A stretch of 59,170 nucleotides of DNA, filler included, from Sphacelaria rigidula (lineage: Eukaryota), in the NCBI GenBank assembly GCA_964200075.2. It is 9 parts of 9 records of this genome, joined end to end, with 100 filler letters (N's around TTAATTAATTAA, not from the genome) between each part and the next. Parts side by side here need not be neighbours in the genome. Positions count along the whole stretch, not along the records: positions 46,101 to 52,585 come from CAXNAA020019801.1; 8 more parts are not named here. One strand, given 5' to 3'. The position numbers and the translations under genes were made by a program. The notes beneath the pieces are model-generated. The model had not been told where the DNA came from. It was given only the letters and a program-made list of their open reading frames with translations, and did not search any database. The number at the start of each line of letters is the position of its first letter. Within the stretch, counting starts at the first letter, position 1. Below, piece by piece: positions 1,299 through 59,170 of this stretch.

Positions 1299-1393
1299 TG
1301 CAGAAACGAAGCCGTACATCGAAAAGCATGCCACTGGGAAACGACCACAATATTTCGCCGCCAAAGGGTTAATTAACTCCTCTTTTTTTCCAA

Positions 1394-1496
1394 GGGGGGT
1401 GTACTCATGATCTTGCATGTCATAGTCAGATGACAATTGACCTCGTATTCCTACAGAGCCGGAACGGAGCACGCCGGGTTTTCGCCGGATCAGGCC
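1394..1496 (-). mobile_element. 5'-truncated LINE 3' end with C-run tail (subfamily B)
   Basis: Reverse complement ends ...gaggtcaattgtcatctgactatgacatgcaagatcatgagtacaCCCCCC. Flanked by the direct repeat tttttt(c)caagggggg at 1383-1399 and 1498-1512. Confidence 0.75.
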
Positions 1497-1858
1497 CTTT
1501 TTTCAAGGGGGGAAGGGAGGGCAAAAAGGACTGAAGGAACAGAACGCCGCGCAATTATGAAATCGGAACTAGTACTGCCCTTGCGCATTTGTTGAGTTCG
1601 GCGCATGTTTTCCCCTATCGACCGCTCCCATTGCAGGTGTAGGCATGCGAGTAGTAAAACAAGGTAGCATTCGAATCAAATGTCCGCATGTCTCTCCGCC
1701 TCGAAACAAATTCCCCCCAACCGCTGCTTGCCTCCCCAAACCTGTCCACTACACCGGCGATATTGTCCCGAATGTCGGCGTCGCGGCCAAAGACTTGATG
1801 ATTATTCATGAACACCCCGCGTGCTGCTCTCTCGTCGTTGGTTCGAAATGTTTTTCAG

Positions 1859-6421: not shown

Positions 6422-6486
6422 AGGGGGGAGGGAGTGTACTCATGATCATGCATGCCATCAGGGGGGGGGGGGGGGTACTCATGATC
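6422..6486 (-). mobile_element. Two tandem C-tailed LINE 3' ends (subfamily B) at the contig end
   Basis: G-rich tract + gtactcatgatcatgcatgccat, immediately followed by a second G-run + gtactcatgatc. Confidence 0.7.
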
Positions 6487-6586: not shown

Positions 6587-8334
6587 AAAACAAAAAACAA
6601 AATCTTTTAAAAAAAAAAAAAAAAAAAAATTTAATAAAGAAAAAAAAAAAAAAAAGCGCTAACAATACCCACACGACAACCGCCGTAACAGCGACAACAA
6701 ACTTTGCTCGGTGGCATGCGTACGGTCACCTGTTCAGTAGCTAATCCATGAGTTAAATCCACCCTGAGGCGCTTCGCTAGACCTGGGATTCCGCCAAAAG
6801 TCTCGTCGAGTCGTCTCCGGTTATCATCGTGCTCCTGTACCGTAACAGGGCCACGGAAGAAGGGGGGGCACAAAGCGACAGTTGCAGGTGAAAACAACTG
6901 TAAAAGTTACCGTCGACACCCACCCTACCGAACCTGGGCCGGCAAAAGCAGGCGTGCTCCGTACTGACTCTATGGAGTGCAAAGTCAATGGTCTCATGAA
7001 TACGTCAAGAAGAATCATGAGTACACCCGCTTCCCCCCTACTACAGTGTAGGGGGCACCATAGATACCGTGTGTGGGTAGGTAGAAGGGTAGGAAAACGA
7101 ACCACCAAGGACTCAAACCACAGTTTCTCGCAAGAGGTAGGTCGGTGCGAAAAAAGAAAAAAAAGGGTAGTCAAGACGACAACAGCTCAAGGACAAGACG
7201 ACCACCGCAAGCAGTGTTGACACCATCACAAAATCAAACGGAACAGCAAGACCAACAACGCCAACAACGCCAACAACGCCACCCACCATTTACAACACCG
7301 ATACCAAAAACAACGAACGCAGCAGCAGCAGCATCTGAATATCCCCATATTGAGGCCCGTGGCCATCGCTTACACGGACAAAGACGCCTTTGCGTGCTCA
7401 TTACGCGGGGGTGGCGGGAGGAAAAAGACAGCTTTTTGCATGGGGATACATAGGTGATACGGTGTACATACGTGGTACAGCGTACATGCGTGCTTCGGTG
7501 TACATGCGAGATACAGTATGGGTACATGATACGGCATATACACGTTATACGGGTAGGGCTTTTACGAAACAGCTGCTCTGCATTCAATTATATCCGTTTA
7601 TGCCAAGCACATTCCGGAATCACCAGTAAAACAACGTAATACAGTAAGCGCGAGCGCAAATTACAACAACATTTCACGTACTTGTTCTACTCCGGTCCGA
7701 ATGCCATGAAATGTTTAGTGCATAACATCCACCAGAATCTTGTGGGATCGGTACATGCAGTGCAGCGATCCCGCTTCATGAAATGGGCTCTGTTTGGGTA
7801 TGTGTCCGCATAGCTGATTCCCGTGGACTTGGATGACAACCATGGCGTCTCATGCCTCCACATTATCCTGAACATTACCCCCTGAAATCCCGTGAAGATA
7901 CCTGACGCAACATTTTTTGCACGTTGAGTGCGCATGGTACGACCATACCTGAGCCGACGAAACCATTCCGATCAGCTTCTCTTTTGGAACCATCTCCAGG
8001 GAAGCGTACGCCGTACTGTGTGACATATCTTTCGACCCTGCATATATCAAGCCGCAACAAACAAAAGGGCACACAGAAACAGCAACAACAAACGGAGGCA
8101 GCAGGCAGGAAAACACCCCCAAGTATGTGTTTCCGTTCGTGAAAGCAGATTCATATCATGGTTTCGGTTGGACATATCTCTTACCGTGTCAGAGGAACGA
8201 CACAGCATCGCGCACAGTAGTCGAACATACTGGGAACATAATTTTTTTGTTTGTAGATGACTCAACACTCGATACCTTGAGCTGTCAAGCCTCATTTCGG
8301 AACAATATCATCGAAGGATATCCTTCCCCAACAC

Positions 8335-8397
8335 AAGGGATGCGTGGTCAATGGTCAAACGACTGAGGCAAGCAACAATAAAAGCACGCCCCCTCCC
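8335..8397 (+). mobile_element. 5'-truncated LINE 3' end with C-run (subfamily A)
   Basis: aagggatgcgtggtcaatggtcaaacgactgaggcaagcaacaa...ccccctccc matches the 3' end of the LINE at 46101. Flanking repeat ccttccccaaca (8322-8333) / ccccctcccaaca (8389-8401). Confidence 0.75.
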
Positions 8398-8556
8398 AAC
8401 AGCATTATGTGTGTTGCCGTCATCCACACCCTGGACAATAGAATACACGGCCAAAAAGTGTACTGCGTACAGTAGCGACGATCGCGCCTATTGCAACAGA
8501 CGAAAGATTCCATACTGTACGCAGTACATTTTTTACAATAGAATCTTTTGTCCAAG

Positions 8557-9954: not shown

Positions 9955-10046
9955 GGGGGGGGGGTACTAATTTGTTGCTTGCCTTATTCGTTTGACCTTT
10001 GACCATGCATCCTTTCGAGACGGAGCACTGTTCCTAATCCTAATAG
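9955..10046 (-). mobile_element. 5'-truncated LINE 3' end with C10 tail (subfamily A)
   Basis: Reverse complement reads gtgctccgtctcgaaaggatgcatggtcaaaggtcaaacgaataaggcaagcaacaaattagtaCCCCCCCCCC. Confidence 0.8.
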
Positions 10047-13072: not shown

Positions 13073-13172
13073 NNNNNNNNNNNNNNNNNNNNNNNNNNNN
13101 NNNNNNNNNNNNNNNNTTAATTAATTAANNNNNNNNNNNNNNNNNNNNNNNNNNNNNNNNNNNNNNNNNNNN
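13073..13172. other. Artificial contig linker
   Basis: N44-TTAATTAATTAA-N44. Confidence 0.99.
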
Positions 13173-14681: not shown

Positions 14682-17600
14682 ATCACCGCGAACAGCCCGG
14701 AGTTCCGCCCATTCGTGTGCGGCAGCGTCTTCGCAGAAGCCCCGCTTTTCCCCGGAGAAACTTTCTACGGCACGATGGATGTGTTCATCGAAAAATGCAA
14801 CCCGAACGAGATCGTTTGGTCGATGGTGTCCATGATGCGTGAGGCCCCAGCAGCAACAGAAATGCCCCTCAGACCGTAAATATAGAAGAAAAATCGGTAT
14901 GACATACGGACCATGCGTATTACTCGTAGTCTTTCATTTCCATTCTTTTTTTTTTTTCGCGCTTATATTTTGATATCCATGTTCCTCTTTCTCCCTTTTT
15001 CTCTTTTTTTTTCTCTCTCTCTCTCTCTTGTATTCCCTTTCCCGATTTCCCTTCGGTGAACAATTTCGATGAGTTCATGACAAATGACGTTCATATGGAC
15101 GACCCCATCCCTCCCGATCTGCCTAAACTATTTGGGGGAACTTCTAGCCTTCCCTCCCCCCAAATGGGTATGTGCGAAAGCACGACTTTTTGGCTAAAAA
15201 GTGTCCATTTTTCACCCCGAAATCGAGGCACAAGTGTGTTTTCGCACGTACCCTTTGGGAGAACGGAAGGCTAGAAATCCCCCACAATAGTTTGAGTGAG
15301 GACGGGAGAGACGAGATCGTCCGTGTATGAAGGTCACTTGTCATGAATTTAGGTCAGGGAAAGCACGGCTTTTGACTTGAACCTCATTTTGTTTTACAAC
15401 CCCATTTTAGAGAATCCACCGTCGACTGTCCATTCTGCACTTGATAATGTTGTAATCGAGCCCCCCCCCCTTTCCCGCGCATGGTCAATCTCGCGGCGCG
15501 TTTCCCGCCGCCGGGATTGTGGCAAAAAAAAACCCGATTCAAACGCAGTCAGCACCAACGACGGGTTTGTGGGCGTCGACTCCGAGAAGCTCGTGACTAA
15601 AGGTGCATCCAAGACCTTCGCAGTGGCCTTCGACGCAGGTGAGGGGTAAAGGTTTTTGTTTCTTCAGTTCTTCTGTGGAAAAAGACATGTGCAGCGACCA
15701 ACTGTCATCAACAACAATATCAGGGAAGGCGAGCTGATCCGAATACTCCTGAAACCATGCAGCTCCCGCTCCCACGGACCTCTCTGTCAAGGCGTTGCAG
15801 CATAGTTTGTCCAAATGAAATCCTTATCTCGGTTGGCTCCAACTGAGATTAGGATCAAGCTAAATAATCTTCTGGATCCACAGTTGGCAAAATGATGCGC
15901 AGACAGCCGTGCTATTCACGGGGCGGAGAGGCAGAGGTGGGAGGGGGGGAGGAGTTGACACCTTTGCCTTTTCTTTTATATCACTCTCAGTTTCCCTATT
16001 TGTAGGGGGCGAAAACGTGGTCTCAAGGGATCAACCCGTCACTCCCCCAGTGTTGTCGTCCCATCTGTTCTGGACGCCGGTCTACATCTTCCGGTATATT
16101 TGGGCGCACCAGCCGGGGTCACACAGCAGGAAGGTGAACACAGGAGCTTTTTTGTTTACTTATTTGTTTTTGTACGCCACCTCCCTTCTGCGTTGCTTGA
16201 CTTTATTTTTTATCGCGAGAAGGGTCCAGCAGTCCCTTTCCCTCGTCGACCGTTGAGTCGAATTTTGTGTACCCACGACATAGCAGCTCTCCACTAAAAG
16301 GCATAGTGTGAGAAAATCCCAGATCGCTCCGAGATTTGAACCCACAACCCAACCATCAAAAGGTTCGGAGGTTACCAACTGAGCCACCGGGGCGACCGGC
16401 TTCCAGTGCCCCCAGTGCGCCCTTAACATTGTGAACAGAGGACTGGGTCAGGACTCTCGCACCCCGTAGACTCCCGTCAATTCATTCGTTGCTGTTTGCG
16501 TCGTCACGCCTTCAAGGACGAAAACCGGCGTGTTCTTCGAAAGACCGTATCGATCGGGCTTCGAACCCGCATCCTTCCGCCGTAACTGGGAGACTTGCTG
16601 GATCACGGAGGCGCGTGCTATGGTAGTATCGATACTTATCATCTCTTCTTTGTTCCTGGAACGGCTGAATGACCTTGTTGGCAAAAAGGCAAAAAGGCAC
16701 TAGTGATGACTCACAGAGCATAGATGCGCCTGAATTACGTAAATGAGTCATGCTACGATACGGGGGGTGTACTCATGATCATGCATGCGATAGCCGTAAG
16801 ACCATTGACTTCGCATCCCTTCAATGCCGGGACGGAGCACGCCAGGCTCGCACTCAAACCACCAAGCGCGAAGCGCCGTGGTGTGCTCGGCGAGTCGCAT
16901 GAAGGGTGAGCTGCATCCTGCTAAGGTTGGTCGGCCCGAAGCCTACTGATAACCTACAATGAGTTGCTTTATTTTCTGGTATCGTCACTTACGATAGGGG
17001 AGGGGGGGGTATTTTGGGCCGTTTCCCCCCACAAAACTCCACTTCAATCGCCGTTGAAAGCAGCCAACAGTTGTTCGAACGCGCTTAATTCCGGAAGATA
17101 ACGCTCATTCATACTGCTTTACAACGCTTTTACCCATATACAAGCTCACCGCGAGTGATCTATGAGCACATTTTTTTGTGAAATCGAATACCCTCCCCCC
17201 CCGTAGCATGGCTCGTATATGTTGCATGCGGGAAGATAAATATTGTACGGTACTCCTATTCTTCAATGGTTTACGAGCCATTCTGGAATTCAAATGTGGC
17301 CTGGTGGCGTTACCCAATCGCTGCGGTGTAGGGAAAAGAGCAGCGTACGTAAATTTTCGCTCGATTGCATGAAAATGAGCGGGCGCGTGGAAACGGCGAA
17401 GACAGGCCCAACGATTCTTGTTTTATTCTCTACGTCGCCGTCGTTTGACCTCGTCGTCGTTTGAGCGTTACACCCGGAAACAATACTGGCGGAAACATCC
17501 ATAGAAATGTATGGGGCTTCCATACCCTTGGTAATATCATAATATCTTGAATTCCCTATGCGAAGTGTTTCAGGGTGTGGGACTTGAATTGTTGACGAGG

Positions 17601-19758: not shown

Positions 19759-19838
19759 ACACACTACCCCCCCCCCCCCCCCCCCCCCTCCCGCCTCTTC
19801 TACAGCACATATACCCCTAACTCATACGCTGCACTCAC

Positions 19839-22800: not shown

Positions 22801-25482
22801 CGCTTTGTTTCGTGTCGTCTTCGAAACGTGGAGGCGTTCTTGTGTATACAAAAATAAACTCAGGGAGTAAAAAAGAGTGCTCCTCCTGAACCAAGTGCTC
22901 CCCAGGTGAGTTCGAGCAAAATGGTCTCACAAGATGGCTGACAAGGTGATGTCAACAAGCTACTCTGCATCCGCGCCAACACGTAGACACAGGAGTGTTA
23001 TGCGTTGTTGTCTCACCTCGAAAAAGATGGCGAGTAAACCAAAACCAGCGGCGGCTGCATAGAACGCTCCGTCGCCGACCCGATACGTTACCACTGTCAT
23101 GGGTTTTGTCACGATCCAAATGTTGTTGCCATCACACACGACAGGAAGTCCAACGTGGAGATGGCGGTTGATTACCCAGCGTAGCCCACCGATGCGCAAC
23201 GTCCCAAGAGGGACAGAAAAGCGAACAGACACAACGAGAAAAAATAATAAGAAAGGCAGGAGGATGCAGGTAAGGATCAGCGACAACAGGCGACACACAC
23301 AGAGCACAAAAGTCCACTCTCAATTCCCCCTCCCACCCACCCGCTGCCCCGTGAAGTCAAAATAATCCAAGCGATACAACACCGAGGAGAACTGCACCAC
23401 ATACCGAGTATGATAATAATGGCGGCCTTCATGGCAGCGCGCACGATGTTGAGAAATAGCTGCCCAAACGGGCCGCGGTGTCCCGCGAACACGTACAGGG
23501 CCTGTTGCACGTCCCACAGGTCCTGATCGAACAAGGGAAAACAAAAAGCACGATTCAAACACCAGAAGCGAACGCTCATCAACACGTCACACACCTTAGT
23601 ACGGGAATAGTGGAAAACTATCGTTCCACAAATATCACGATGCTACCTGTCGTACTGAAGTCTAAGCAGCGGACACATCGTTCGGGACGTTGACATTCAT
23701 GTATCAGGCGCCGGAGAATGGCATGGGACGGGGAAGGGATATTGGGGGGAAGGGGGGGGAAAGAAGACCTGGGTATGTTGGGCCAATGCTGAGCGTGAAT
23801 TATGCTGGTGAGGGGTGGCACCCAAAGGCGCGTGCAGTACAAACAGCAGCTCAATTCTTCGGGTGCAGAGCGCCGGAACTAGTCATTGCCCATCTATGTA
23901 AGCGCCAACTTTTCGTGACTTGACAATCACGTGCAAGTGCTGCAGCAGTGAGTATACCACAGACAGCTTCATAGTCCGGAAGCTCAACATGCGTGTGTTT
24001 GCAGTGTCGTGACTTACCCTTACGAAGGAGCACACGTAGAGAGTGATTACGGGCGCCAGCCAATTCTCTGCGTCGCACAAATTCTCTCCGAATAGCTGAT
24101 CCTCATCGTCCTCATCTTCCTCTTCCACGGATAGCTGGCATTTCGCCCCTACGATCATCAGATGCAGCCCGACTATGTGCAGGACGTGGACCTGTGCATG
24201 CATAAAACACAGAAGATTATATTTACAGTCAGAAGCGACCATGTGTACGAGTATCACACCATATCTGTGGGCGGGGAAAATTCATCTGATAAAGCAGTCA
24301 AGCTTCCACCAAGGCGTGCAGACACGCTGATCAAATTCGAGCAAACATCACGGTCTCGACACATGCCAGCCACGACGTCTTTGAGTTCACTCGATTGCTT
24401 TCCCGTCAACCACAGACAGGCAGGCCCGGCGAGGCTACCGTCGCTACTGCGTCATTCGACATTTCGTCCGGGTCATGCTCTGATATTCACATCGTTTCAA
24501 AACCGCAAAACCTCACCCTCCAAAAGGAGAAGATTGGTACCAGCCAGCTCTGCCGCTCCACAAACGTTTTCTGGAACCTGATGCAGTGAGTGACACAGCG
24601 AAACGGCAGCGGAACGGCGCCGACAAGCACCAAAAGACAGATACGGAAAGGAAGACACGGAAGGAATTAAAGGAAACGAAGGAATTAGTACAAAAACAAA
24701 GCAAGGTTGAATCGCACGCATAATATTCCCTTTATCCTCGAGCAAGCACATGTACATATATATACATGATAAAAACGAGAAACAGGTGAATGAAGTGGGA
24801 GGGCAGGAGAAACTGAGACAAACGACGTACAGTAGGCCCAACCACACGCACAACGTATATAACGCAGGGATAACATAACAAAATGCACCACATGTGAGCG
24901 TTTCGCTCATGTCTCGGCCACGAAGGTCAATCGACGTGTGAGGTCCCAGCAAGCGGGCTCCATCCGCATCGTCCGCGACCACGAAGCCGGGCATGAATTG
25001 ACGGGGGCTGGGGGGGGGGGGGCGGACCCCTTTTTTGTTGCCTTAGTCGTTTGACCATTGACCAAGCATCACTTTCGAGACGAAGCAAAACTGACGGGGG
25101 GAGGGGGTTGGAGGCTAGTTCGCTTTAGAAATCCGTGTCGACAACCTCACAGGCTCGCAAATTTTATCGACAACAACCATCGACGTTCACTTCACATGAC
25201 CAACCAACTCACTCAGCTCGAGCCACAGTGCTCGCTTACACTGCTGCTTATCTTACACGCGGACAATGTTTGCGGTGGGGGTACCCACCTCTTTGTGAGG
25301 GTCTTCCCGTCGAACATGGTAGTGACGTTAAGCGACAGGCAGGCCTCCTGCCAGAAGATCTCGTTGAAATCGTCGTAGTTTCTGACTTCGGTGTGGTCGA
25401 TCACCCCGTGCCCGATGTCCGCCAGCTGCTTCGCGAGGATATCATACGCCGGAGTGATGATATCGTCGAGGTATACGGGGAT
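19839..25482 (-). CDS. 1,3-beta-glucan (callose) synthase, GT48/FKS1 family, ten internal exons
   Basis: Phase-consistent exons 25482-25289, 24577-24517, 24191-24018, 23522-23405, 23093-23017, 22603-22424, 21740-21475, 21119-21000, 20449-20332, 19925-19839. Motifs RNYDDFNEIFW, KTFVERQSW, RYTLFWLLVL..K.AFSY, IYFLDMQIW and FAHVWNEIVDAMREEDIISDRE. Confidence 0.93.
25010..25088 (-). mobile_element. 5'-truncated LINE 3' end with C-run (subfamily A), in a glucan synthase intron
   Basis: G13...ttgccttagtcgtttgaccattgaccaagcatcactttcgagacgaagca. Flanking repeat aa(t/c)tgacggggg at 24996-25007 and 25089-25100. Confidence 0.75.
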
Positions 25483-26344: not shown

Positions 26345-26426
26345 TGTGGGGAAAGCACTGTTTTAGGCTTGAGCCTCATCTCGAAGTTAAATCTCAATTC
26401 TCACAATTTGTTGTTATCTGTCGCAG

Positions 26427-32930: not shown

Positions 32931-32996
32931 GGGGGGTTACTCATTTGTTGCTTGTTTTAGTCGTTCGACCATTGACACGCATCCCTTTCGACACGG
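32931..32996 (-). mobile_element. 5'-truncated LINE 3' end (subfamily A) with G-runs on both sides
   Basis: gggggg-ttactcatttgttgcttgttttagtcgttcgaccattgacacgcatccctttcgacac-ggggggggagggggg. Confidence 0.8.
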
Positions 32997-34189
32997 GGGG
33001 GGAGGGGGGTGAGCCTGGGGATAAGGTGTAGGGATATAGATCTGGTTTACTCAAACCTAGGTTTGAACCCTGAGTAGCCCTACGTTGAAAGAGTTGGATC
33101 ACGTAAGGTTTTGCGAGGAGGAACCGAGCATAACGTGGCTAGATTCTTGCGTGAACAGGTACATGTAACTGCAGAAAACATTCTGCACACAAACACACAA
33201 TTTACAACCCTGGACACACTGCTGGCGTTTGCATCCTGTCGCCATCCTGTCGCTCTACTCTTGAAAGCTGCCCCATGTCCGTCGTGAAATTCGGCCGATG
33301 ACGTACACATACACATACAGTATAGTACATCACACGGTACTCGCCCGGCACAATTTTTGGCATCTAAAGTTACCGTTCCGACCGAAATGTTGAATATATT
33401 GATCTGGGAGCGAGAACAGTTTTGCGTGTTACTTTGCACGGCCAACGCTAGAGTCTCTGTGTCGGTACGTGTGAGCTGTTGAGTAAGATAATTCCATGGC
33501 ACACCGAGCACGTGAGGACATAAGGAGACCAGTTATTTTAGGCTCTCAGAGATGAACTTGCTAAATTGGAATGAGGTGAGAGCTCGCTCGACTGTCCGAA
33601 TCTAGCTGACGGAAGGGGACTGGCCGCATTCAGAGGTTGGGGCAGGGGCGCCGAGTTCGTGTTGCACTATACAGACAGCGCCGTACATCACTAAATATCG
33701 TTGGTCTGTGCAAATCCAGCTTGGCTTCGCGTGTCGAGTGGAGGGGGTTGGGCTCCCTCTCTATCGGTCCGAATGGTCGTCGCGGCACCGGATATTTTGG
33801 GGTTGGTATAATATCATTTATTTTCATTGTATCGCGTCTGTGTTTTTTTTTTTTACCCTGTTTTATTTTACTTTTATTTCCTTCTACACCTTATTTTGGG
33901 TAGTCGGCCCGTGACCACAGAAGACGTCCGCATCAGATGCCCGCTATGGAAGTAAGATGGTACTGCGCAAAGACCGGAACGATTGTTTATCTGAAGACAA
34001 CATCAACGACAACATAGGGTGCTCGTAGCGCCTTCCTGTGCTTCTGACGGTACTGTACTGTTTGTACAGACACTACAGCAACATCACGACATCTCTTTTG
34101 ACTGTGCAAACCCAGTTGCCGAGGGGGAGCTCGTCGCGTGTAGAGTTGCAGCAGGGGTACTGAGCTCGGTAGGGGCTTTTGGTTTACCT

Positions 34190-46100: not shown

Positions 46101-47150
46101 TGTCTTAATCGTTTGATCATCGACCACGCATCCCTTTCGAGACGGAGCACCGTTCCTCCTCTCATAGAGACAACTCCAACATCCCGGCGCTCATTACGTT
46201 TCTTCCATACATAACACAAAAACCTTTTACGTATCTCATCCCCGTCTGTTTCGCCGTCTCTGGCCACCATCTATCTCCTAGTATAGCCATAGTTTTTCCC
46301 CTACCGTCTAACGCATCAAACGATTTCATGCCACCTTAGTTCACGTCCCGTATTTTCCCCTCTAGCACGTCCTGTTCCTCCTTGTATAGTTCACATTCTG
46401 TCACTATATAACTTCTGCTCTCTATTGCTTCACCACAGGGGCAATTCTGTGCATATACTTCCTCCTCCTTCCGACGACTGGTATATCTCTTTCCTCTTTC
46501 TGGCAGGTGCAAGTCCCCCACCCGGAATCGCAGTTTCATATTTTTCGCAGCGTCCATTGGGCCACGTAAACATGATTTCATCCCTATCCCCTCTCTCAAC
46601 CCCCCGTGTATCTTCAGGCGTTCTTTCCCGTCTACTTTACGTCTGAGCGTTCTTTTCTTCCATATTTCTATAATGTCTCTTACTTTTGTCTTGTACCTCG
46701 CGCCTTGAGATATGGACAGTATTTCGTCTTGGTTTCCTCCTTTCTTCTTCCCCACTTTTTCGACGTTTTTATCCCACCTTATGGCACGTCCTTTCGTACT
46801 TTTTTTCCTAGCTGGCAATCTCTTTCTCGGCATGTTCTTTAAGCTATATTGCCATCACATTTTCCTCGTGTCTCTATTTGTTTCAAGCCAGTGCATTCCT
46901 AACTCTGCTCTCAATGCTGTATTACTCGTCGTTTTCGAGAATCCAAGTAGCTTCTCAGCTGCTGCCATCTGTACTGTTTCCGCTTCTTCACCAACTTCAC
47001 GTTCCCCTCCCATACTTCCGCACATCACAGCTTTGGTACGATCACGTTCATGAGGATACATCGCTTAACCCTAGTGTCTAGCGGGTCTCTGAGGATCACG
47101 CCCACCCTTCCTATCTGTGCCGTACCCTTTTCCATTACTTTGCTGATGGG
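46101..47150 (-). mobile_element. Decayed non-LTR retrotransposon (LINE), 3' ~1 kb of ORF2
   Basis: RVKRCILMNVIVPKL / EVW / AAAEKLLGFSKTTSNTALRAELG resemble the region downstream of a LINE reverse transcriptase; KLRFRVG...CPCGEAIESRSYIVTEC is a degenerate C-terminal CCHC knuckle. Several stops and frameshifts. Its 3' end matches the short C-tailed repeats. Confidence 0.85.
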
Positions 47151-47284
47151 GTGCAGGTCGCACCTTCCTGATGGGGGGCGCACAATGCTATAGTTAGGTT
47201 TGCTGAAAAAATACAGATTTGGAGATGCCCATGGAATACTATATGTCAGAGTCATACCTACTGAGAATGTTCACGGAGAAAATG

Positions 47285-47449
47285 CCCATACTTAAGTGGA
47301 GAGCGACTATGTCGTGGGTACACAAAATTCGACTTTACGGTCGACGAGGGAAAGGGACTGCTGAACCCNNNNNNNNNNGCTGATGCGCCCATATATCTCG
47401 AAAGGGGTAGACTGGCGCCCAGAATAAATGGGACGACAACACACACACT
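47285..47449 (+). mobile_element. SINE family 1 fragment spanning a 10-N gap
   Basis: agtggagagcgactatgtcgtgggtacacaaaattcgact...gagggaaagggactgctgaaccc N10 ...atgggacgacaacacacacac. Confidence 0.8.
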
Positions 47450-48469
47450 CAGAAAATAGTGTGGGAACGTTTGATATTTGCTCTCAAAATTGTCCGCTTT
47501 TCCTCAGTTTTTCGACGTTTGATCGCCCAGTACTCACCACAACCACGGTGAACTCTCCCGTACAAACCTCCTTCCGTCGTAAACGGAGCGCCGGAGAATC
47601 ATTGGGCCACCGATATGCCATGGCGGTGGAGATAGCGCTGGCCATTCTGGCAGGCGACTCGATGGCACCGAACGGATCTCTACGTCCACTCATGGAGCCC
47701 TACGGTGTTGGCTCCGAGTACCCGAAAAAGCTATGGAAAAGCTGCAAAGATCTGATGGACGACACCGGGGAGCTCGACCCCTTGAAAAATGTCGGAATGG
47801 GCAGCCGTTGCTTCTTACTCCAACAACGGCCGCGGCGCTCCGGACGGTCAACAAGCACAATCGGCTGTTTCCGCTACTGCACCCCCCCCCCCTCGCCACG
47901 TGACTGCGGCCTGCAAGATCGTGAGAACACCCTGCCCCCTCCCGGAACAGGAATAGGGGCGGAATACTGCCATTTTCGGGCCGACTGATTGTTTTTCGGC
48001 CGTTTGTCCATGCAGGATGGCATGCAAACAAACATTACAATAGAGACTTCAACTCAAGAAGCGCAAAAAATATGAAAAAACACGATCGCCTACGGAATGG
48101 GGCACCCGTAAGGGCTCTCGCAAACGGAACGGACTTCACTCATGGCACAGAGGAACTACAGATATATCAACCACATCCATGAGGTCTTGAAATTCGACTC
48201 TGCAACACGAGAGAAAAAGCGCGCTACCAAAATATCCCGTACAAATACACCACAATACAACTCCACAATATATGTATGACATTCAGACTTCTCTCCCCAA
48301 GACATACCTCGCTAGGGGCGGTGTGAGATATGGTCGCCGAAATTTATGAGAAATCTCGGGGCGGATTCTTTATGCCAGAGTGGAGGGGGCGATATACTCT
48401 GCATACCCAGACGGACAGACGTACGCAGACAGAGAGATGACATGGCATGTACGGTAGGTAATGGATCAC

Positions 48470-48626
48470 CTATCGCGCCGGGAATGGCCAGACACACGAG
48501 CCGACACAGGAGTACGCCATCCTGGAACGTGTTCAAAACGTCCGCGCCCTCGGGGTCTAACGGCAGCAAATGGTTCAGGAACGCGTCCCCTGCCAGATGG
48601 ATGTTTAGATATGACGCGAGCTCCTC
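48470..48626 (-). CDS. Calponin-homology domain exon (fimbrin/plastin-like first CH domain)
   Basis: 157-bp exon bounded by ag/gt: EELASYLNIHLAGDAFLNHLLPLDPEGADVLNTFQDGVLLCRLVCLAIPGAI (LP.DP...DG.LLC.L motif). Confidence 0.75.
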
Positions 48627-50689
48627 CTGTATGACATCGATCGAATGCAGCGCGGAGAAGGCGCGCGGGGGGCAAGGGGTAAGGGGTAAGGGGAGGTGTA
48701 ATACGATGCCAGAACGATCTTATAGTATGCGTAAGTCGCCCCGGTGGTCCATTGGTACAACCTGCAGCATTACGTCGGGGAAAATGTGGCTTTGATTCCC
48801 AGTGCGTTTGTTTATTTGTTTGTTTTCTGAGAAGGTGTTTCATTTCCGTTGTCGAAAACGTCAGTAACAGTGAGTGAGAACCTGAGAAGCAAACAACCTT
48901 ATTTGACGACCGGAATTCGACGCGCGGTGCGGGAGTGCTGATCCAATCCGCGATTCCAAAATGCAAGGCGAGTACCGGAGAGAGATGGATTATTGATCCC
49001 TCAAGACCGCGGACTCGTCTCGGGAAAATGGGGGGTTGAAAGTGAGCCCCTCTCCTTCCCCCCAAAGAAGGTATTTTAGGGCTCTTGTCCTTGTTCTTCT
49101 GCACTGCTGTGGCATAAACACAACAAGCTCACTGCACAACTTCGTTTCCCTTTCTGAGTTCCAACGATACAAAACAAAGCTCGTACTTGCTCTGTGCCAA
49201 AAGTAAAGGTAGTTATGACTATACAGACCCTTAACCGTCGCTGATGCAAAAGGCGATAATTTTCCGAAATCTTCAGTGTTTCTTTATTCAAATATAATAT
49301 ATATATATATATTCTGCGCGCACCTTTATGCATGCATGAACGGCCGAAAAAGATCAGTCGGCCCAAAGAAGGCCGCATTTTGCCCGTTCCTGGAAAACGG
49401 CGAAGAACATTGGAAACTCCCCAAAACTCCAAAAATCGCGAAAAAACGTCAAAATAACCACATGCCTCCGATTCATCAGCTTTGGACGATATCTACGCCT
49501 CGTCCAAAACCACTTGGTCACATAGCTGCCTCCAGTTGGTTACAAAACAGGCAAAACAATCGAAATTTCGCGGAAAATGGTAGAATGTGGTCGAAGTTGG
49601 TCGAAGTTGGCCACGTTTCGACCCACTAATTCTCGGTAATTTCGGCTCAGTTTTTTTTTTTTTGCGAGCATCAGCACATCAGTAGCTTTCAAAAAAACCT
49701 AACGATAGCATCGTGGGCAACTCCGTCGGCGATATACCATCTGCCCCCGATAACGGACTGTACTTATGGCACAGAGGAAGTATGTATGGACCATGATCAT
49801 GGCCTTCTCGGGCAGGCTCTGTTGTGCCTCCCACCAATCCCCTTACTCATGTAACTGTGATTCGGGCTCTGGTTCCTCTCCCTACGCTCGCACTGCACCT
49901 ACCCCTTATCTTTGTCATCCTGTGATAGGAGGGAAGAGCGAGGGGGGTACTGTACAACGCTTTGCACCTGTTGGCGTTGCCAGAGAGTGGCCCTTGTTCT
50001 CACTGTTGCTTGGTATGCACTGATATCTCTACTGCTGTACGCCGAGATTAGAGAATAGACAAATTGTTTCCAGTTTTTGCGCCTGTTCCAAGTTGTTTTC
50101 CTCAAATCCTTGGACGGATGTGAGGTACCACAGGTCAACACAAGATCGACTGGTGGAAACAGATGGAAGAATCAAACTACGTCGGTTGAACGATACATGA
50201 CGAGTCGGGGGTTCGCGACGTCGGAGCACTCCACGGTATTTTGTCACCGACATGAGAGGGTGGTAGAGGCGATGCTCTCGTGGACAAAGAGAATTGCTCA
50301 GCTGTAGAGCTGGCGGCTACCGGTGTTCAAGAGCAACCATGTGCATGAACGCCGCAAATATAGGGGCACCGCAGAAAAAGTACGGTTGTATTCATAGGAA
50401 TACAGCTCGGGAGGGGGGTTAGTCGCCCAACAACTTCTCACTGCAGAAAGCCTTACGACCCATCAACCTTGGCTATATTCAGTTTCGCTCTTTTGCTCCA
50501 CTCATACTCGACTTTTGTTCAGCGAATGTTTTCGCCAACGGTATTTGACCTCCGGCTGATCTCTATATCTGGCGACTACGGCTGGGTTCGGAGCTAATCA
50601 TGTGGTGTGAGACAGTTAATGAGTCAATCAGTCAATGGGTCGAATCAATGTCCGTTGAAAATTGCCGCCTGGGCCATAAGATGTGCTCT

Positions 50690-50780
50690 CTATTTGATTT
50701 ATTTGATTTGATTAATTGACGCACATCAACTCATCCCCCAGACATCCAGCCTTACCGTAGTAACATCATACACGTAGTCG
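50690..50780 (-). mobile_element. Retroposon 3' end with (AAATC)n-like tail
   Basis: Reverse complement ctgggggatgagttgatgtgcgtcaattaatcaaatcaaataaatcaaata resembles ctggggggtcagttaaagtgcgacaatcaatca at 2365-2397. Confidence 0.5.
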
Positions 50781-52585
50781 AGAAAAACAAAACGGAGACT
50801 CGCTGAAGGACACTGAAGAAAACAGGGAAGTGGGACAGACACGAAGGGTAGACTGAAAAAAATCATACAGAGACATATACTGTATATATGCAGAGATAGA
50901 GAGATGGAGAGAGAACAGAGAAGACGGAGGCTGCAGAAGTGATGAAGCACGAGAACATAGTACAGGAGAGTAGCTGCAAACACACAGACCGGGGAACATC
51001 GCAAGACCGCCGGCCAGGGAAAAAATCAAGGACGAAACTCACAACTCATAGGAAAAGACAGGGATACATCGCTTCCCGTGTTTTTGCCTATCTTCCCCCA
51101 TTCATCGCTAGTCGGGTATGCAGCGGGCCTTTTGAGAAAGTACGATATAAAGTAGCACAGAGTCGACCCGGCTTGGTACACACGCAGATGGAACATAATG
51201 CGCAGCGGCCAGAAAAGAGTAAGGACTACAAGTTGGTCACTACAGGGTAAAAGTGGTCTGCGAGATTCCACACTTGCGACTGGATACAAGATATATATAT
51301 ATACAATACCTGTCCTCGTCTGCGAAGGAGTGAGTCACTGCCCTAGAAGAGGCACAGAAGTGACCAGAATCCTCACAACTGTGGTCAATAAAAGGTGATG
51401 ACTGCGGCAAGTAGGAGCTAACAAGGAGACCTTGCCACCTCGGGCCAGCTTCAAGTATAGAAAAAAAATGATGGAACACCTACAACCGTGAAGCCGTGCT
51501 AACCACCATGCTGCTCTGATCAAAAGCCATAGCTAGTATCACGAGCGAGAAGGAATGATGATGCCACGGGTGAGTTGTAGAGTTGGCGGCGAAAGGTCCA
51601 AAAAGCGAAATAATATCGTGTCGAAGAGGCCAATGAAAGAACAATGTATTTGGCGTCTAACGTGAACTAGGCTTCGACAGGGGTGAGCCAATAGAGTTGC
51701 GGGTCCCGAAAAGAACGTTATCGTACCCTGCTGCCAAAGGATCTTCAGAGCGAGGCGTGATTCTCTCTTTTGTCATTTAGGCAGGGATGCGACCGTGACC
51801 GATGGTAGGCAAGGAGAAGAAGTGAACGAGGTGGTGCGGTAGTACCGGCTACGTTCTACCAGGGCTCAGACGGTGGCCTCGTTATTTCGGGATCTTGTAC
51901 CGGAGACCCTGTTTGCCTAGGTTGCCCAAGATCCAGGTTGCACAGGTTTGAACGTTTCGGGTCCGCTCATGTGTGTCACATCTTGTGAGATCGTTTTTCG
52001 TGAGGCTGTCGATTGCGCCAGCCACACGAGTGAAAGGCTGAGGGCAATGTGCCTTGTGATCGACACAGTGGACAGCTCTGCGAAACACGATCCAGCAAGA
52101 TGCCCTGCGATTTTGTTGAATTAGACTCTGAGTCCCATGTTCTTTCATCGATTTCTCTGCCACAACACGATTTCACTTTTTGGGCCGTTCGCCGCCTACA
52201 CTCTCATCTTCATGTCGGTGGATCTCAAAATTGCCAATGGACGCACAGCGACTCCCTTGAAGTTCAAAATCCGAATTTAAGAGAAAGGCAGCATGTAGGT
52301 GTACAGGTTGTCGTGCAGATGGACAGAAAGGATCATCACAACAAAAATAAATCGTAGAAATCGGTATCCATCCACGTGTACATGGAGCCAAGACACTCCC
52401 GGCCAACGTCGTACTGTGAGAGGAAACAGAGTAGAGGGATGGGTGGCGCTCTTTGGACGCTAAATATCTGGTTGTAACACGGGATATTACAAACTGAAGA
52501 TGGTATTTTTCACGGTAGATAAATCATCACGACTCAAAATCACCAAATTCACGATTTCTTCGGCCTGATTGCCCAAAAGGGAGAA

Positions 52586-52685: not shown

Positions 52686-52740
52686 GCGAGGTCAATAGTC
52701 TTATGACTATGGCATGCATGATCATCAGTACACCCCCCCC
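52686..52740 (+). mobile_element. LINE 3' end with C8 tail (subfamily B) at the contig start
   Basis: gcgaggtcaatagtcttatgactatggcatgcatgatcatcagtacaCCCCCCCC. Confidence 0.75.
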
Positions 52741-54654
52741 GTCCCGTCCCGTCCCCTTCCCCCCTCTCCACACACACACGCACGCATGGTGCCCATGGCA
52801 GTATCATGACGTTGCTTTTTCAACTTTTTACTGATGTTGCATGCGCGCTCCGTCGCGACAGCAAATCTAGACGACGACGGTCGTGAATGCTCTCAAGCAC
52901 ATAAAGCACGTTGAGCGTAAAATCAAGATAAACGGTGCCGACACTTTCCACCAACACTGTGTTGTCCAAAAGCTAATTCATTCGTCAAGTGTCGGTTGTG
53001 CACTATCCTAATCTCTACCGAGACATTCGTGCCTCTCTCTAGCCCTCTCTCCCTCTATTTTCACATGCACAACACAGCACAACAATGGATGACACGATCC
53101 GCTGTTCGTCAGGTCGTCCGTCCTGTAAAACAGAACATACGCACATATTGTGTCGAATAAAATAAAATAAAAATAATGATTTCATAATTGATAGATAGTT
53201 AAGGTCAATAAAAGCGAATCCAAAAGGTGAAATACTAAAACTGTGGAATATGAAGTAGCCGACTACATCATGATGAATGATCACAATAATTGTCGTATCA
53301 CTGAACGAACACCCATCGGATCACTACACAGTACTACACATTCCACCATCTATACACTCTGAAGGTCATCCTTCATGCCCAGAGAGAGAGCGCGCTTTCT
53401 CACAAATGATCCAAGATACAGCACGCCTGGAATGTTGGTACGAACACAGACGCACATGAAGAACTGTTCCCTCCCCCACTAAAGGGTCAGTCATCCTGAA
53501 ATAATAGTATTTTACCGGAGTTAGTCAAACCGAAAAACCGGCTCGGCTCCACCGGTGGACCATCCCACACCGTCAAAGGAACAGCTCGCACTTGTCGTGA
53601 TATACCACTTATCGCGAGGTACATATGTTCCAGGGCAAACACCCCCCGGCGATGAAGCGATCACCTCTAGCAGCCGGTTTCGTGATAGCTTGGGCAGGAG
53701 AAGAATCGAGAGGACGAACGGACTGTTGGAAAAATGCCATCAAATTCATGGGGAATAATACTGCTGCCGATACCGTTTGCTTTCCGCCCACAGCGGTTCA
53801 GTCTGAAAGGCCCAACCTTTCATCTTTTGTGGAGGATGGGTGTTGCTGATCTTTACTCTCGGAGTATAGATGACAACCCCCGGTTTCCGGGATCACCAGG
53901 AGGAGGTGGCACCGGCTGCGCTTGCATCAAAGCAACAGTTCAACAACGTACATGGGGCACGAAACACATCGAGCTTAGAGCAGTACAGCGGCCGGTTAAA
54001 TTAGGGGAGGAGGGAGGGTTATCAAGGGGAAGGCGAATGTAGGGTTTCCTTCTCGCCGAGGGTAGGCTTGAATTGCCACGACCAGCCAGAGGGCGAAGAA
54101 TCGAATGACAATTCTTGGAAGCACACCCTCCCGTGCATGACGCATCTCTACCCACCTCTACTCCGTCCATTGCGCGGCACGCATCTCAACTAACTATGCC
54201 CTTGCACGGGAACTCGACTCGGCAACAGAGAGAGGTTAATCTCACCACTGACCCCTTGCGGGCGACGCCGCGTCACGGAAAAATATATTCCGGATGAATT
54301 TTGACGCTGGTAATCCCTAATCAAAGAGTAACGGAGTAGCTCCTTCTCGAAATTTCGAGCACCACCCCCAACGATTCACAAGAACATAAATGGACGCATG
54401 TATGTCGTGTGTTCGTGACACCCCATGAAATTGACTCATGACCTACTGCTTTAATCCAGAGCGGATGTTGAAGACTCCCCTTCAGTGGTTAATCCGGTCC
54501 CAATACGTGCCATACAGGGTGATTTCATTCAATATACCACGACCACGTGACTGAACGGGGGGAAATATATGCGGTTTACAGAGAGTAGCACGAAAAATAG
54601 GCCATCACTCAGCACGATAATCCACGAGATTACAAAACCGCGGGCGAATGGTCG

Positions 54655-57600
54655 TCAGAGATTGGCCAAGCTCGTGAATAACAAAAACAGAAGCAGCAAC
54701 AGCAGCAACAGCATCCGCGAACGAAAAACGCGTTCATTACTCACCCCAGCTGCACCGCACAGCATGCTCTTATCGGTCGCTCCAAGGACTAGTTCATTTT
54801 TAGCAAGACCAGCCGACACCTGGGACGACTGAGGCAGAGGCTCGTTGGCGGGTACCATGAGCGGTTTCGGCCATCTCCATGTTGAAGATCCCTCGCCTCC
54901 ATCAGCACTTTCCACTTCCACTTCCACCTTCGCCCGCGGCACGAGCTGAGCCGATTCATCGCTGCTATTTTGGCCGCCGCCACCACCCTGTGCGGGAAGT
55001 ACGTCACAGGCAGAAAAAGCTGCTACAAGAGTGTCGTCGGCGCGAGGAACGGCACTCGCGGTAGGCACAGCGGAAGTAGATTGATCTAGAACGGGAGTGG
55101 CCATATCCGACTTAACACTAGGCCAGAGCTTGGTCAACGAGCGGGAACTTCTGCTGATCATGTCGCCCTCCGAAGCCATGCTCCAGTTTCTCCCACGCTC
55201 GGAATCTTTCTTCACCAGCCCGCCGCTTCTCGAGGCCACGGGAACGTCGGCCGCCATTTCGGTGGTTCCTTGATTTTTGTCATTGCCACTCGCCACAGAG
55301 TCTCCCACAGCCTCAAGAGCGCAGGCAGCGCCAGGTGGTCTGTCGAACGCCGGCGCAGCTAGCGCCGATCTCGCTGGCGCTGTCGCCGCCGCCGATTCCA
55401 CGAGGTTCTGAGCCCGAGCTTCCGCGATCAGAGCGTCAGCGATTGTCTCCCGCAAGCTCTCAAGCGCACCTTTGGCTTGCAGGAGACGGCAGTTACTGCT
55501 GGCGCAACGCGAGACTTCGCTGCCGCCGGTACTATCACATCGGACGGTGCTGCTACCGCAATCGCGTGTAGCATCGCCCTTGCTGTCATCGGGAGAAGCG
55601 GAGTCATATACACTGCTGATGATAAAGCTGAGCGCGGCTTCATCCGGCGAGTTACCATTCTTTGGTACGACCGCAGAGCTCGACGACATCCGGACCGACA
55701 ACCGGTTTCCTCCGGCCTCGGAGAGAGGCGGCGCCGGCCCCGACGCGACGGAGGGCGCCGGCGCTGGGAGCAATGTTTCATCCTCGCCGTCATCGCACGT
55801 GGCGCCGTTGTTATCATTGCCGCTGAGCACTGACCTGAACGAAAATTTCCTACTAGGTTGCGTAGGGACGGATGCCGCGCCGCCTGTGCTCACGGGGCGA
55901 TCTTCCTTCAGCTTCAGCGGGGGCACTGACCCTAGCGTGAACGACAAGCCTTTTTTGGTCCGCGCGCTGTTCGTAGACACTCCATCTCTGCCTTCGCCGG
56001 AACGGCTGGCGGTAGAAGAGCTTGGGACCCCAGTCGAAGTGCGCCGCCGCGTCAAGGACGGGAGCGGGATTGAAGCGGCAGCGAACGACGACCGTCGCAG
56101 ACTTGCTGCGGTAAGTTCGTCCTTCACGGCGCGCAGAGCTATGACTACTTCTTCGGCGGTAGGTCGAGCGGTCAGGTCCTCGCTCCAGGCGGATGTCAGC
56201 AAAACCTTGAGGACCTCCGGCCATTCCTTGGGAAGTGGCGGCCGTTCTCCTTTGAGGATAACCCGCTATCGGTTTGTTCGTTTGGGTCGGGGATTGGGGA
56301 CGGAGGGGAAGGGCGTTTTTCGGGGGTGTAAGTCGGGCGAACACCAACAGACGAGGAGATATGCCAGAAAAAAAGGATGAGGATTGTCTGAACGTGGAAG
56401 GCGGCGGTCAGCATATTACCAGCACCCTTTCTCAGCACCACGGAAGAGGGCATATGAGCGCCGGAGCGTCGAGAAGGATGGAAAATGACATCATTGAAAG
56501 ATGTGTGCCCTATCCTTCTCGTTGGGAAAAAAAGGATAGGAATATCCGTCATATATATATAGAGAGAGAGATGTATTATATACTTCGCATTGTTTACGAT
56601 GCCAGGTGTTCTTCGTCCTATTGTTCCTGCGACCATGATGGAAAAACGAATGATTCCCGTAGCTCCACAGTCTGTAGTTACTTCAAACACTTGCGCAGCC
56701 ACACACGTAGACAGGCAGGGCGTAAATTACCTCAACGAAAGTCGTTTCGTTCATCGAGGAGTAGGGTCTCTTCACGGCCAGGATCTCCCAGCTGATCACT
56801 GCCCAGCTGTAGATGTCTGCTTTGACGTTGTAGGGCTCGTGCTTGACTAGTTCGGGCGCCATGTAGCGATAGGAGCCGACTTCCCCAGTCATCTGTGACG
56901 AAGAGGACGGACGAGGCACATATATTTTCTTTGTTTTTTTTATCGTTGTTTCCCTCCCTTGGAATCCTATTTATTTTCAATCTTCACACAAAGGCTCTAG
57001 CTACATATATATATATATATATATATCGATATTCCAACACGCAACCCATTTCGCCCCGAAACATGACAACTGGTGTAACGGCTGGACGGCCGGGGCGCAG
57101 TGGTACATCTTTTTTACCTCGTACTTGTTTACAAAACCGTACAGGTAGTGTTGACGGTCAGCTACCATGCTGCGAAAAATCAAATGTTGGCGAAAAAAAA
57201 AGTACATATTTCAAATCAGGCAAGCTCACGACAGGTCAATTTCTCGCAAAGCGAAAATTCTCGACGGGCTCGCGCACACACACACACACACACATCCTGC
57301 AGGATATCATGGGCATGTGATACCATCGCCGACACAGCACAAAGTTAGATTCCGGGGCGGAACACTCCGTCCGGCGTTGGTGTTCATGGTAAACCGTGCG
57401 GAATGGGAACAACGCGAGACATGCAAAAAGTAGATTCCTCCTGCCGAGGACATCGAGACAAGACATATTTTCACCACTGTAGTGATGGATTCATTGCCCT
57501 GAACCAAAACGGTACGCGAACCCGGTTAGTTGATTGTCCGTCTACGTTCGGTATTCTCCCGAGGGTATTGCACGCATACATCACTGTACCATCCCCCTCT

Positions 57601-59056
57601 CCTCCGCTCAACCCTTAGACCGGGAGAGTAGTCAGTCCAGTTGGATCATGCATAATTTTTTCACACCCTGTACAACTACAATAGTTGGTCGCTGTTTCTC
57701 AAACAGGTAACTGTTCAGAATCGTGTGCAACTAGTTGTTTCCTAACAACGAACTATATTATTTTTTCAAGTGATATTGACGGCGATTCAAGAGATGACCG
57801 ACTCTAGCCGTGCCAGGGTTGAAAATGCTCCGTTGCATATGGACACAGCACACACCATTTGTGAGGCAAACCCAACGCCAACCCGAAAGAGACAACTTTA
57901 GCGGCTTGCTGGTAGTAGAACTAGACCGACGTACCCTTAGCATTTCCGAAATAATCACTGTAGGAATTCGCGCTCGACTCTCATCTCTCAGGGATAACGA
58001 AGCGCAAAAACCTTCATCTTCATGAAAAATCGGACGGCCCTTGCACGCATAAAAAAGAGGAAATCAACAATAAGAATAGGAACCAACGACATTGTGCAGA
58101 CAGGAAATTCTGACCCTCAGAAAAAGATTTTTTGGGAACTGGATGGTAGTGTGGTTTTCGGTAGAAGTGCGTACGTAGCCGAGAAAGTTCGAAACATCAT
58201 CTCTTTCAAGTCAGTGCTGTGATGCCCCTCGCAAGAGATGCGCAACAAAGGTCCTGGAGGGTGCACGCGGGGCAATGTCCATCGGGTTCGTTTCGGTGCT
58301 CTCTCCGACCGCACCTGATATGTTTCATTCTCCGGCGTGCCAATTGGCCCCACCACTTTCGCCAGTCCAAAATCTGCAGTACGGGGTGTCGGTTGCGGTA
58401 GGCAATGCTATGCGGTTACCGAACAGTGCAGCACTACCATCAAGGTAGTAAAGAATGATCTTCTCAAGCAGGATACCATTGAATCGTACACAGCCAAGGC
58501 CTACGCCCCGGTAACCGGGAGAGCTTACTACTGAGAGCACATAACAGACACCGAGTACACGATACAATGAAATGCAGAGGCACGTAATGCAAACGTTGAA
58601 CATCGAACAATGCCTCGAAGGAAAATATGCCATGTTCGTATGCCGGACAAATTTTGACCTATGGAAAATGACTCGAATGACAGAAAATCTAATCGAAAGA
58701 GGGAGGGGGGAGGGGGGGTTATTCGTTTGTCGTTTACCCAATAACCATTCAACACGCACTCCTTTCGAGACAGGGCACCGTTCGTACCACTAATAGATAC
58801 CTCCAACAGTTGAGCGCTCATTGAGTTTCTTCCATACAGTTCACAAAAGCCCTACACATATCCCATCCTTCATATTTCGCCGTCTGCGGTTAAAAGCCCG
58901 AAGCCCCCCCCCACCCTCCCCCTCCCCCGGAGAAGACAATTTCACCAACTGAAATTTACCATTCTTGCTACCATTCCTGCTACTGCTGCTGCAAGTCTAC
59001 TCGAGAAGCTCACCGATCAACTTGAGGTTTCCATTCTGTGCGAATCCGATGTTCAC
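54655..59056 (-). CDS. TKL-type protein kinase, 3' four exons with a long low-complexity C-terminus
   Basis: Exons 59056-59014 (VNIGFAQNGNLKLI), 58373-58315 (DFGLAKVV...YQ), 56892-56731 (MTGEVGSYRYMAPE...KADIYSW) and 56265-54655 (GERPPLPKEWP...AWSEDLTARPT, then a Ser/Ala-rich tail). Phases are consistent; the 3' end is uncertain. Confidence 0.9.
58700..58888 (-). mobile_element. 5'-truncated LINE 3' end (subfamily A), ~180 bp
   Basis: G-rich tract followed by sequence colinear with 46101-46260 (ctttcgagac...gcaccgttc...ctccaaca...gcgctcatt...tttcttccatac...tttcgccgtct). Confidence 0.8.
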
Positions 59057-59103
59057 CTGCGGATGAACGCGGACGAAATACGCATGCATATGGTATACAC
59101 GAT

Positions 59104-59170
59104 GGGGGGAGGGGGGGGGGCTGTACTCATGATCATGCACGCCAAAGTAATCAGACCATTGACCTCGCAT
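59104..59170 (-). mobile_element. LINE 3' end with C-run (subfamily B) at the window end
   Basis: G-tract + ctgtactcatgatcatgcacgccaaagtaatcagaccattgacctcgcat. Confidence 0.75.

Follow-up and report, generated by a model that had tools for sequence, protein, structure and literature searches.

The window analysed here, a stretch of 59,170 bases from the Sphacelaria rigidula assembly GCA_964200075.2, contains many copies of the 3' end of a long interspersed nuclear element (LINE) that terminates in a run of C on its sense strand. Very probably, these copies represent a brown-alga-type LINE and short non-autonomous elements whose 3' end is taken from it, both inserted by target-primed reverse transcription (TPRT) at C-rich sites, with RTEX-1 and RTEX-2 of Ectocarpus as the most likely counterparts. 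This reading builds on direct observation of copy structure, the tail, target-site duplications (TSDs), abundance, arrays and protein domains. The window consists of nine pieces (five of 6486 bp and four of 6485 bp) separated by N44-TTAATTAATTAA-N44 spacers at 6487-6586, 13073-13172 and onward; it is not a contiguous locus, and distances across spacers are meaningless. Pieces of near-equal, descending length are what a fragmented assembly would give when its whole scaffolds are sorted by size; their ends are accordingly taken to be real scaffold ends.

Within the window, copies were identified by self-BLAST, site inspection, alignment and an nhmmer profile built from the 3' ends. The profile produced 11 matches at E ≤ 1.8e-8, comprising the long copy at 46101, nine sites listed in a first-pass annotation made from the sequence alone, and a match at 6951-7023 that the annotation had missed. 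Two further ends are a 23-nt copy at 6458-6436 (minus strand; nhmmer E-value of 0.17) and, recognised by eye, a stub of 11 nt at 6476-6486. Five additional nhmmer matches with E-values of 0.6-6.8 were treated as noise. The copies have their 3' end in common, and their 5' ends lie between 25 nt and about 1.07 kb upstream, which bears out the recurrent, fixed 3' end with variable 5' truncation that the first-pass annotation had described.

Twelve of the 13 ends could be evaluated for a tail; the exception is the long copy, whose 3' end is lost at the scaffold end, 17 nt short of the tail, as the annotation had noted. A C-run of C5-C15 follows within 0-1 nt on the sense strand at 10 of these 12 ends, and the remaining two continue into broken C-rich tracts, CTCCCTCCCCCC and CCCGCTTCCCCCC. 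Such a frequency greatly exceeds the chance level, as only 459 of 116,892 window positions (0.39%) have a run of at least five C within 3 nt downstream. No A-run of the kind expected for an L1-like element was found after any of the 12 evaluable window ends, after the independent metagenomic copy described below, or in the listed consensuses of loose contig ends. The sequence past the C-run is different in every window copy, showing that the element ends with the C-run. The open reading frame (ORF) ends KGCVVNGQ(T/M)TKASNK-stop and is followed by 4-5 nt before the C-run, leaving almost no 3' untranslated region (UTR). The C-run ends without an A-tail and the minimal 3' UTR that the annotation had proposed were thus both recovered.

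TSDs indicate how much of the C-run came with the insert. Seven copies have both ends, and TSDs were clear in three of these, plausible in two and absent in two (Table 1); the remaining copies are cut by scaffold ends or arranged in tandem and fall outside this tally. All TSDs that were found start with C. At 25010, C13 and the dinucleotide AG stand ahead of the TSD, and at 8335 a C5 followed by T stands ahead of it, so at these two sites C was added with the insert. Conversely, the TSD of copy 1394 begins with C6, and its 3' C6 is therefore the start of the TSD; at both 1394 and 16762 the whole 3' C-run is readable as duplication. The C-run is accordingly part tail and part target. The first-pass annotation had treated it as tail throughout, which holds for the separate C-runs at 25010 and 8335, while a share of the C elsewhere is duplicated target.

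The copies, pooled by the annotation as one family, are of two kinds. Type A copies carry the coding end of the LINE itself. Type B copies align to type A only in a core, ...GTGCTCCG...GGATGCG..GTCAATGGTC..., and in the terminal bases ..ATGAGTACA; the rest of their sequence is different. The two type B copies bounded by TSDs are about 95 and 222 nt long. A shared 3' core joined to an otherwise different short sequence identifies type B as a short non-autonomous element that uses the 3' end of the LINE. The pooling was thus right about the shared 3' end and merged two different things. A tRNA scan and Rfam gave no match to the type B head in the window.

Table 1. Copies of the LINE 3' end in the window. 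Positions count along the whole window; tails are given on the sense strand.
Copy	Type and extent	Position	Strand	nhmmer match	3' end	TSD
46101	A; long, degenerate	46101..47180	-	46158-46101		
9955	A; ~82 nt	9955..10046	-	10036-9965	C10 tail, 9955-9964	none found
25010	A; 25023-25091	24999..25100	-	25090-25029	C13 tail, 25010-25022, then AG, TSD	clear; CCCCCGTCA at 25092-25100 and 24999-25007
32931	A; ~60 nt; 5' flank CACCCCCCTCCCCCCCC	32931..32998	-	32998-32938	C6 tail, 32931-32936, cut by scaffold start	
8335	A; 8334-8388	8326..8401	+	8334-8384	C5 tail, 8389-8393	plausible; TCCC(C)AACA, exact core CCCAACA at 8327-8333 and 8395-8401
58700	A; diverged, ~170 nt	58712..58889	-	58786-58729	C7 tail, 58712-58718, then TCCCCCCTCCCTC	none found
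1394	B; 1400-1494, about 95 nt	1379..1512	-	1475-1402	C6, 1394-1399	clear; CCCCCCTTG(G)AAAAAA(A)G.. (CCCCCCTTGAAAAAA..)
6423-6486, first end	B; 11-nt stub (6476-6486) cut by scaffold end, head to tail with the next; position is that of the pair	6423..6486	-		C15, 6461-6475	
6423-6486, second end	B; 26-nt copy	6435-6460	-		then CTCCCTCCCCCC	
16762	B; 16768-16989, about 222 nt	16754..17000	-	16843-16770	then C6	clear; 5' side CCCCTATCGTA (16990-17000), 3' side CCCC-G-TATCGTA (TATCGTA 16754-16760)
6951	B-like; 6929-7026	6923..7041	+	6951-7023	then CCCGCTTCCCC	only possible; CCCTAC at 6923-6928 and 7036-7041
52686	B; 3' end, 5' side cut by scaffold start	52686..52740	+	52686-52730	C8 tail, 52733-52740	
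59104	B; 3' end, 5' side cut by scaffold end	59104..59170	-	59170-59124	C10-T-C6 on sense strand, 59104-59120	

The long type A copy contains the C-terminal ~365 codons of an ORF encoding an endonuclease and reverse transcriptase (EN-RT) protein. This part lies downstream of the reverse transcriptase (RT) domain, includes a CCHC motif, and is interrupted by two in-frame stops and one frameshift; C6 at 47172-47177 (G6 on the plus strand) marks its 5' limit. A protein search with the 172-codon ORF at 46336-46854 found four longer relatives, one of which is a Sphacelaria rigidula gene model. Of these, P0002 has 655 aa and an RT domain and ends in ...KGCVVNGQMTKASNK. A further search with P0002 returned P0005, a protein of 1360 aa with 90% identity to the query and with Exo_endo_phos (170-392) and RVT_1 (740-989) domains. 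P0005, known here from the protein alone, is one EN-RT protein that starts with M, and its residues 996-1360, past the RT domain, align with the window remnant. The apurinic-type endonuclease and reverse transcriptase that characterise non-LTR elements are therefore found together in this homologue, while the window remnant itself is without an RT domain. Likewise, Pfam detected no RT domain among the window ORFs (94 of 97 ORFs of at least 110 aa scanned). As the full-length homologue is one EN-RT protein, the name ORF2 used by the first-pass annotation probably does not apply.

P0007, a relative from Ectocarpus sp. CCAP 1310/34 with the C-terminus ...GQMTTASNK, shares 70% identity with P0002 across 69% of the query; its identity to the window ORF is 51%. 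More remote relatives, P0008-P0016, show 40-45% identity. In the gene models P0004 (Sphacelaria) and P0007 (Ectocarpus), the LINE C-terminus is fused to unrelated parts. In Sphacelaria the partner is a class-3 lipase domain; in Ectocarpus it is a Gypsy polyprotein together with a NADAR-type domain. Both fusions are probably annotation chimeras that arose from insertions.

An independent copy was recovered by scanning metagenome contigs with the C-terminal 172 aa, which identified a single locus, L001, from a marine metagenome. It carries an open frame of 672 codons that ends ...KASNK-TGA and is followed by GTACG, C8 and unrelated DNA without an A-run. The 3' end of L001 is 88-90% identical to the type A copies 9955, 25010, 32931 and 8335; the match to copy 9955 covers L001 1940-2032 at 90% identity. 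Over L001 1843-2040, identity to the diverged copy 58700 is 71%, and L001 940-2007 shares 75% nucleotide identity with the long remnant at 46101..47180.

To quantify the element beyond the window, Logan contigs of four public sequencing runs were placed on L001:1300-2100 at 85% likeness. Runs containing 74-80% of the sampled words of window positions 47379-52585 are publicly available, some of them under the label 'algae metagenome'. The matched contig pieces numbered 91,345 in run X1, 71,020 in X3, 4,215 in X6 and 3,798 in X9, in agreement with the great abundance that the first-pass annotation had supposed. Summed depth in X1, which is not equivalent to copy number, was 18-26 million over L001 1948-2028, the last ~80 nt. 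Upstream of L001 1921 it ranged from about 5e2 to 2.3e6, unevenly across bins, and it was 0 from L001 2056 on, in the flank of L001 itself.

The contigs also served as an indirect form of the downstream-sequence tabulation that the annotation had suggested. Loose ends behind L001 2029-2032, inside its C8, were found in at least 303+333+322+1466 X1 contigs, and X3 was similar. The listed consensuses of these ends continued as 13-19 more C in X1, and as 6-21 C across the four runs, before becoming heterogeneous (agreement about 0.4).

At the other side of the terminal segment, loose ends before L001 1959/1961 were poly-C in at least 385 X1 and at least 350 X3 contigs. Joints that go back 66-77 nt, from L001 2023-2032 to 1956-1963, comprised at least 14 joints in at least 242 X1 contigs; the joint 2032->1959 alone was seen in 53 X1 and 47 X3 contigs. 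The back-going joints and the poly-C before 1959 point to an extremely abundant unit made up of ~65 nt and a C-run; another C-run frequently stands before it, and such units are frequently arranged head to tail. The 5' ends of short type A copies cluster sharply at L001 1956-1963, ~65-75 nt from the tail, with C-runs before them; among the window copies, those with 5' ends at 25091 and 32996 fall at this hotspot. No ~74-bp tandem array was found in the window by Tandem Repeats Finder.

A (C)n tail is already on record for Ectocarpus relatives, in three table cells of PMC12477816, a 2025 catalogue of Ectocarpus transposons. In supplementary table 1 of that source, RTEX-1_Ec32 is entered as 'single EN-RT ORF; (C)n 3'' with 'C-rich' TSDs and lengths of 5867 and 5511 bp, and RTEX-2_Ec32 as '(C)n termini/TSD'. 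The first-pass annotation knew of no described poly(C)-tailed clade and had named an earlier description as what would count against its claim; these entries are such a description. The source also lists RTEX-N1_Ec32 (607/604 bp, 'can be present in tandem', '60 bp 3' end 83% RTEX-1_Ec32/RTEX-2_Ec32') and RTEX-N2_Ec32 (188 bp). According to its available part, these two are non-autonomous, have their last 60-100 bp in common with the LINE, show C-rich TSDs and carry a head of unknown origin. Other Ectocarpus LINEs in PMC12477816 have different tails, (CAA)n in RTE and (CA)n in CRE, and RTE-X is given there as the most abundant LINE group in Ectocarpus, with 16,418 copies and 3.41% of the genome. 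The available main text of PMC12477816 leaves the tail undiscussed and uses 'C-rich' 0 times. Elsewhere, an 'RTEX-1' is also reported for Saccharina, with the tail unmentioned in the available part of PMC4421812, and a plant RTE with a (TTG)n tail appears in the available part of PMC3747384. Keyword searches of the literature on poly(C) tails in retrotransposons and on RTEX/RTE-X found no paper treating the tail, and no paper in the searchable literature describes a G/C priming mechanism, the arrays, the 65-nt unit or the sharp 5'-end hotspot.

The Sphacelaria family resembles RTEX-1/2_Ec32, as described in supplementary table 1 of PMC12477816, in its putatively single EN-RT ORF, (C)n 3' end, C-rich TSDs and high copy number, and the Ectocarpus protein P0007 has the same ...ASNK end as P0002. 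It differs in its host species and in that all copies in the window are degenerate or truncated; the likeness is to table descriptions rather than consensus sequences. Type B in turn resembles the RTEX-N1/N2_Ec32 entries in being short, in the shared 3' core and in the tandem pair at 6423-6486, but its copies measure 95-222 nt as opposed to 607/604 and 188 bp, and this likeness is again one of descriptions and not of heads. The listed traits of the Ectocarpus (C)n RTE-X elements, a (C)n 3' end, C-rich TSDs and tandem-capable non-autonomous partners, were all found here. Given these matching traits and the close Ectocarpus homologue, we file the family as a counterpart in another host.

Under the TPRT reading, the autonomous element would encode one protein with an apurinic-type endonuclease, a reverse transcriptase and a C-terminal CCHC motif, its ORF stopping 4-5 nt before (C)n. 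The endonuclease would nick the other strand within or next to a G-run, and the freed G-run would pair with the (C)n on the RNA's 3' terminus and prime cDNA synthesis, by analogy with the T-run and poly(A) of L1. The expected outcome would be a variable C tail, C-first TSDs and frequent 5' truncation. Old C tails could then act as landing sites for new copies and give rise to head-to-tail arrays. The (C)n would not stem from polyadenylation; it may instead be templated by the master copy or lengthened through slippage. The ~45-65 nt that precede the tail are conserved and contain an invariant core, GTCAAT.GTC, common to types A and B; this stretch is a likely recognition signal for the enzyme.

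Mammalian L1 elements have a poly(A) tail added by the polyadenylation machinery of the cell and a TTTT/AA nick site. The proposed scheme is like theirs in that a 3' homopolymer pairs with a homopolymer at the nick, TSDs start with the tail base, copies are 5' truncated and old tails are targeted again; it is unlike theirs in having a tail of C rather than A, a putatively single ORF and a minimal 3' UTR. LINEs that are specific for microsatellites also occur in the R1 clade. With simple-repeat-tailed or microsatellite-targeting LINEs, the present family shares a non-poly(A) tail, a short 3' UTR and a tail that matches the target, but its repeat unit is a single C, a G/C homopolymer.

We tentatively suggest, as a real possibility, that (C)n is a working equivalent of poly(A) and that a self-reinforcing loop, in which tails become targets, has yielded tens of thousands of ~65-nt tail-only units, the arrays and part of the excess of G/C homopolymers. 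In the window, 14 C/G runs of at least 10 bases were observed against 0.08 expected; A/T runs of this length are also in excess, with 12 observed against 0.09 expected. Of the 23 C/G runs of at least 8 bases, five are tails of recognisable copies and two lie at 5' junctions, and inspection by eye found no terminal motif beside the other 16. The seeding of G/C homopolymers by the element, as the annotation had supposed, is thus seen for the former and not for the latter. Long C tracts without a recognisable element end occur at or near scaffold ends at 19588-19654, 19767-19788 and 21410-21436 (C10-G-C17...C14, C22, C27). Each may be what is left of an extremely truncated copy, the tail of some other family or a native target.

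An alternative holds that the LINE has no C tail of its own and is a site-specific element entering pre-existing poly(C)/(G) tracts, all flanking C being target. It would account for the C-first TSDs, for the 5' flanks that are often C-runs, for the poly-C loose ends before L001 1959, and for the copies at 1394 and 16762, whose entire 3' C-run fits the TSD. The 16 of 23 runs without an adjoining copy show that C-tracts exist independently, and the entry for RTEX-2_Ec32 in supplementary table 1 of PMC12477816 refers the (C)n to termini and TSD alike. Nevertheless, we consider it unlikely, as AG parts the C13 from the TSD at 25010 and T parts the C5 from the TSD at 8335, and as the curators of RTEX-1 assigned the (C)n to its 3' end in the same table. 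Moreover, a tail made of C is compatible with a C-run target, and the two are expected together. Far less credible still is that the C-run lies within a longer 3' UTR ending in poly(A), or an artefact of assembly or sequencing, which we regard as next to impossible. Scaffolds do break in these repeats and C-runs, and homopolymers are error-prone. Yet the sequence after the C-run differs in all window copies, in L001 and in thousands of contigs from the four runs, no A-run follows, and independent data sets as well as the Ectocarpus curation tabulated in PMC12477816 show the same end.

The arrays raise a separate alternative, in which the ~65-nt unit with its C-run is a satellite derived from the LINE tail and spread by unequal crossing-over or replication slippage rather than by repeated retroposition. 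The many back-going joints of 66-77 nt, with 2032->1959 foremost among them, and the sharp 5'-end cluster at L001 1956-1963 agree with such an origin. On the other hand, the short copies in the window are dispersed and have different 5' ends, at least one of them (25010) has its own TSD, and Tandem Repeats Finder detected no such array there. We therefore think a satellite origin improbable; it bears in any case on the arrays alone and not on the tail.

Several observations weigh against the TPRT reading with a poly(C) tail. No TSD was found at 9955 or 58700, where both ends are present. At the type B copies 1394 and 16762, the 3' C-runs are wholly explicable as TSD, so that an RNA tail is only putative for type B. 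The 5' cluster at L001 1956-1963 is unexplained by simple random truncation. The hairpin predicted in the conserved core of the 3'-end consensus is weak (-3.5 kcal/mol), with compensatory changes in 0 of 8 pairs, and was set aside as evidence. C-run lengths in short-read contigs are unreliable, and X6 and X9 carry 'RNA?' labels that are guesses, so both were treated as contigs. Finally, membership in RTE-X is putative and derives from the Ectocarpus curation and homology to P0007.

The repeats coincide with breaks in the assembly. Five of the 18 scaffold ends in the window lie inside element copies (6486, 32931, 46101, 52686 and 59170), the number given by the first-pass annotation, and two more lie in C-runs (19658 and 19759). 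The scaffold at 52686-59170 has type B copies at both termini, in inverted orientation and broken at almost one element position (GCGAGGTCAAT... / ...ATTGACCTCGCAT), which is expected where an assembler halts at a high-copy repeat.

Two copies have unusual flanks. Directly after the C10 tail of copy 9955, at 9932-9958, lies a C-rich 11-nt repeat of 2.5 copies (sense CCTCGTCCCCT), which may be a variant or slipped tail. Just 5' of copy 58700, a tract at 58890-58930 is G-rich on the sense strand of the element (CCGGGGGAGGGGGAGGGTGGGGGGGGG) and may be the tail of another copy in reverse orientation.

The sole Pfam matches among the window ORFs are two exon fragments of host genes, one of a serine carboxypeptidase at 1573-2049 (plus strand, E-value of 8.6e-8) and one of the 1,3-beta-glucan synthase FKS1 at 25213-25689 (minus strand, E-value of 1e-12). 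Element copies lie no more than a few hundred bases from each, suggesting insertions into introns or near genes. A GC-rich region at 26345-29818 (up to 0.60) contains plus-strand open frames of 386, 293 and 337 codons with no Pfam match.

Beyond the Ectocarpus record, the present results add a second host, detail at the level of TSDs and genome-scale counts. The family and its C-runs disrupt short-read assemblies, and we advise masking and modelling them when genomes of the brown-alga type are annotated. A LINE with a non-A homopolymer as its tail offers a natural test of primer choice in TPRT. If pairing between G-run and C-run replaces that between T-run and poly(A), the identity of the tail would be set by the pairing of enzyme and target and not by polyadenylation.

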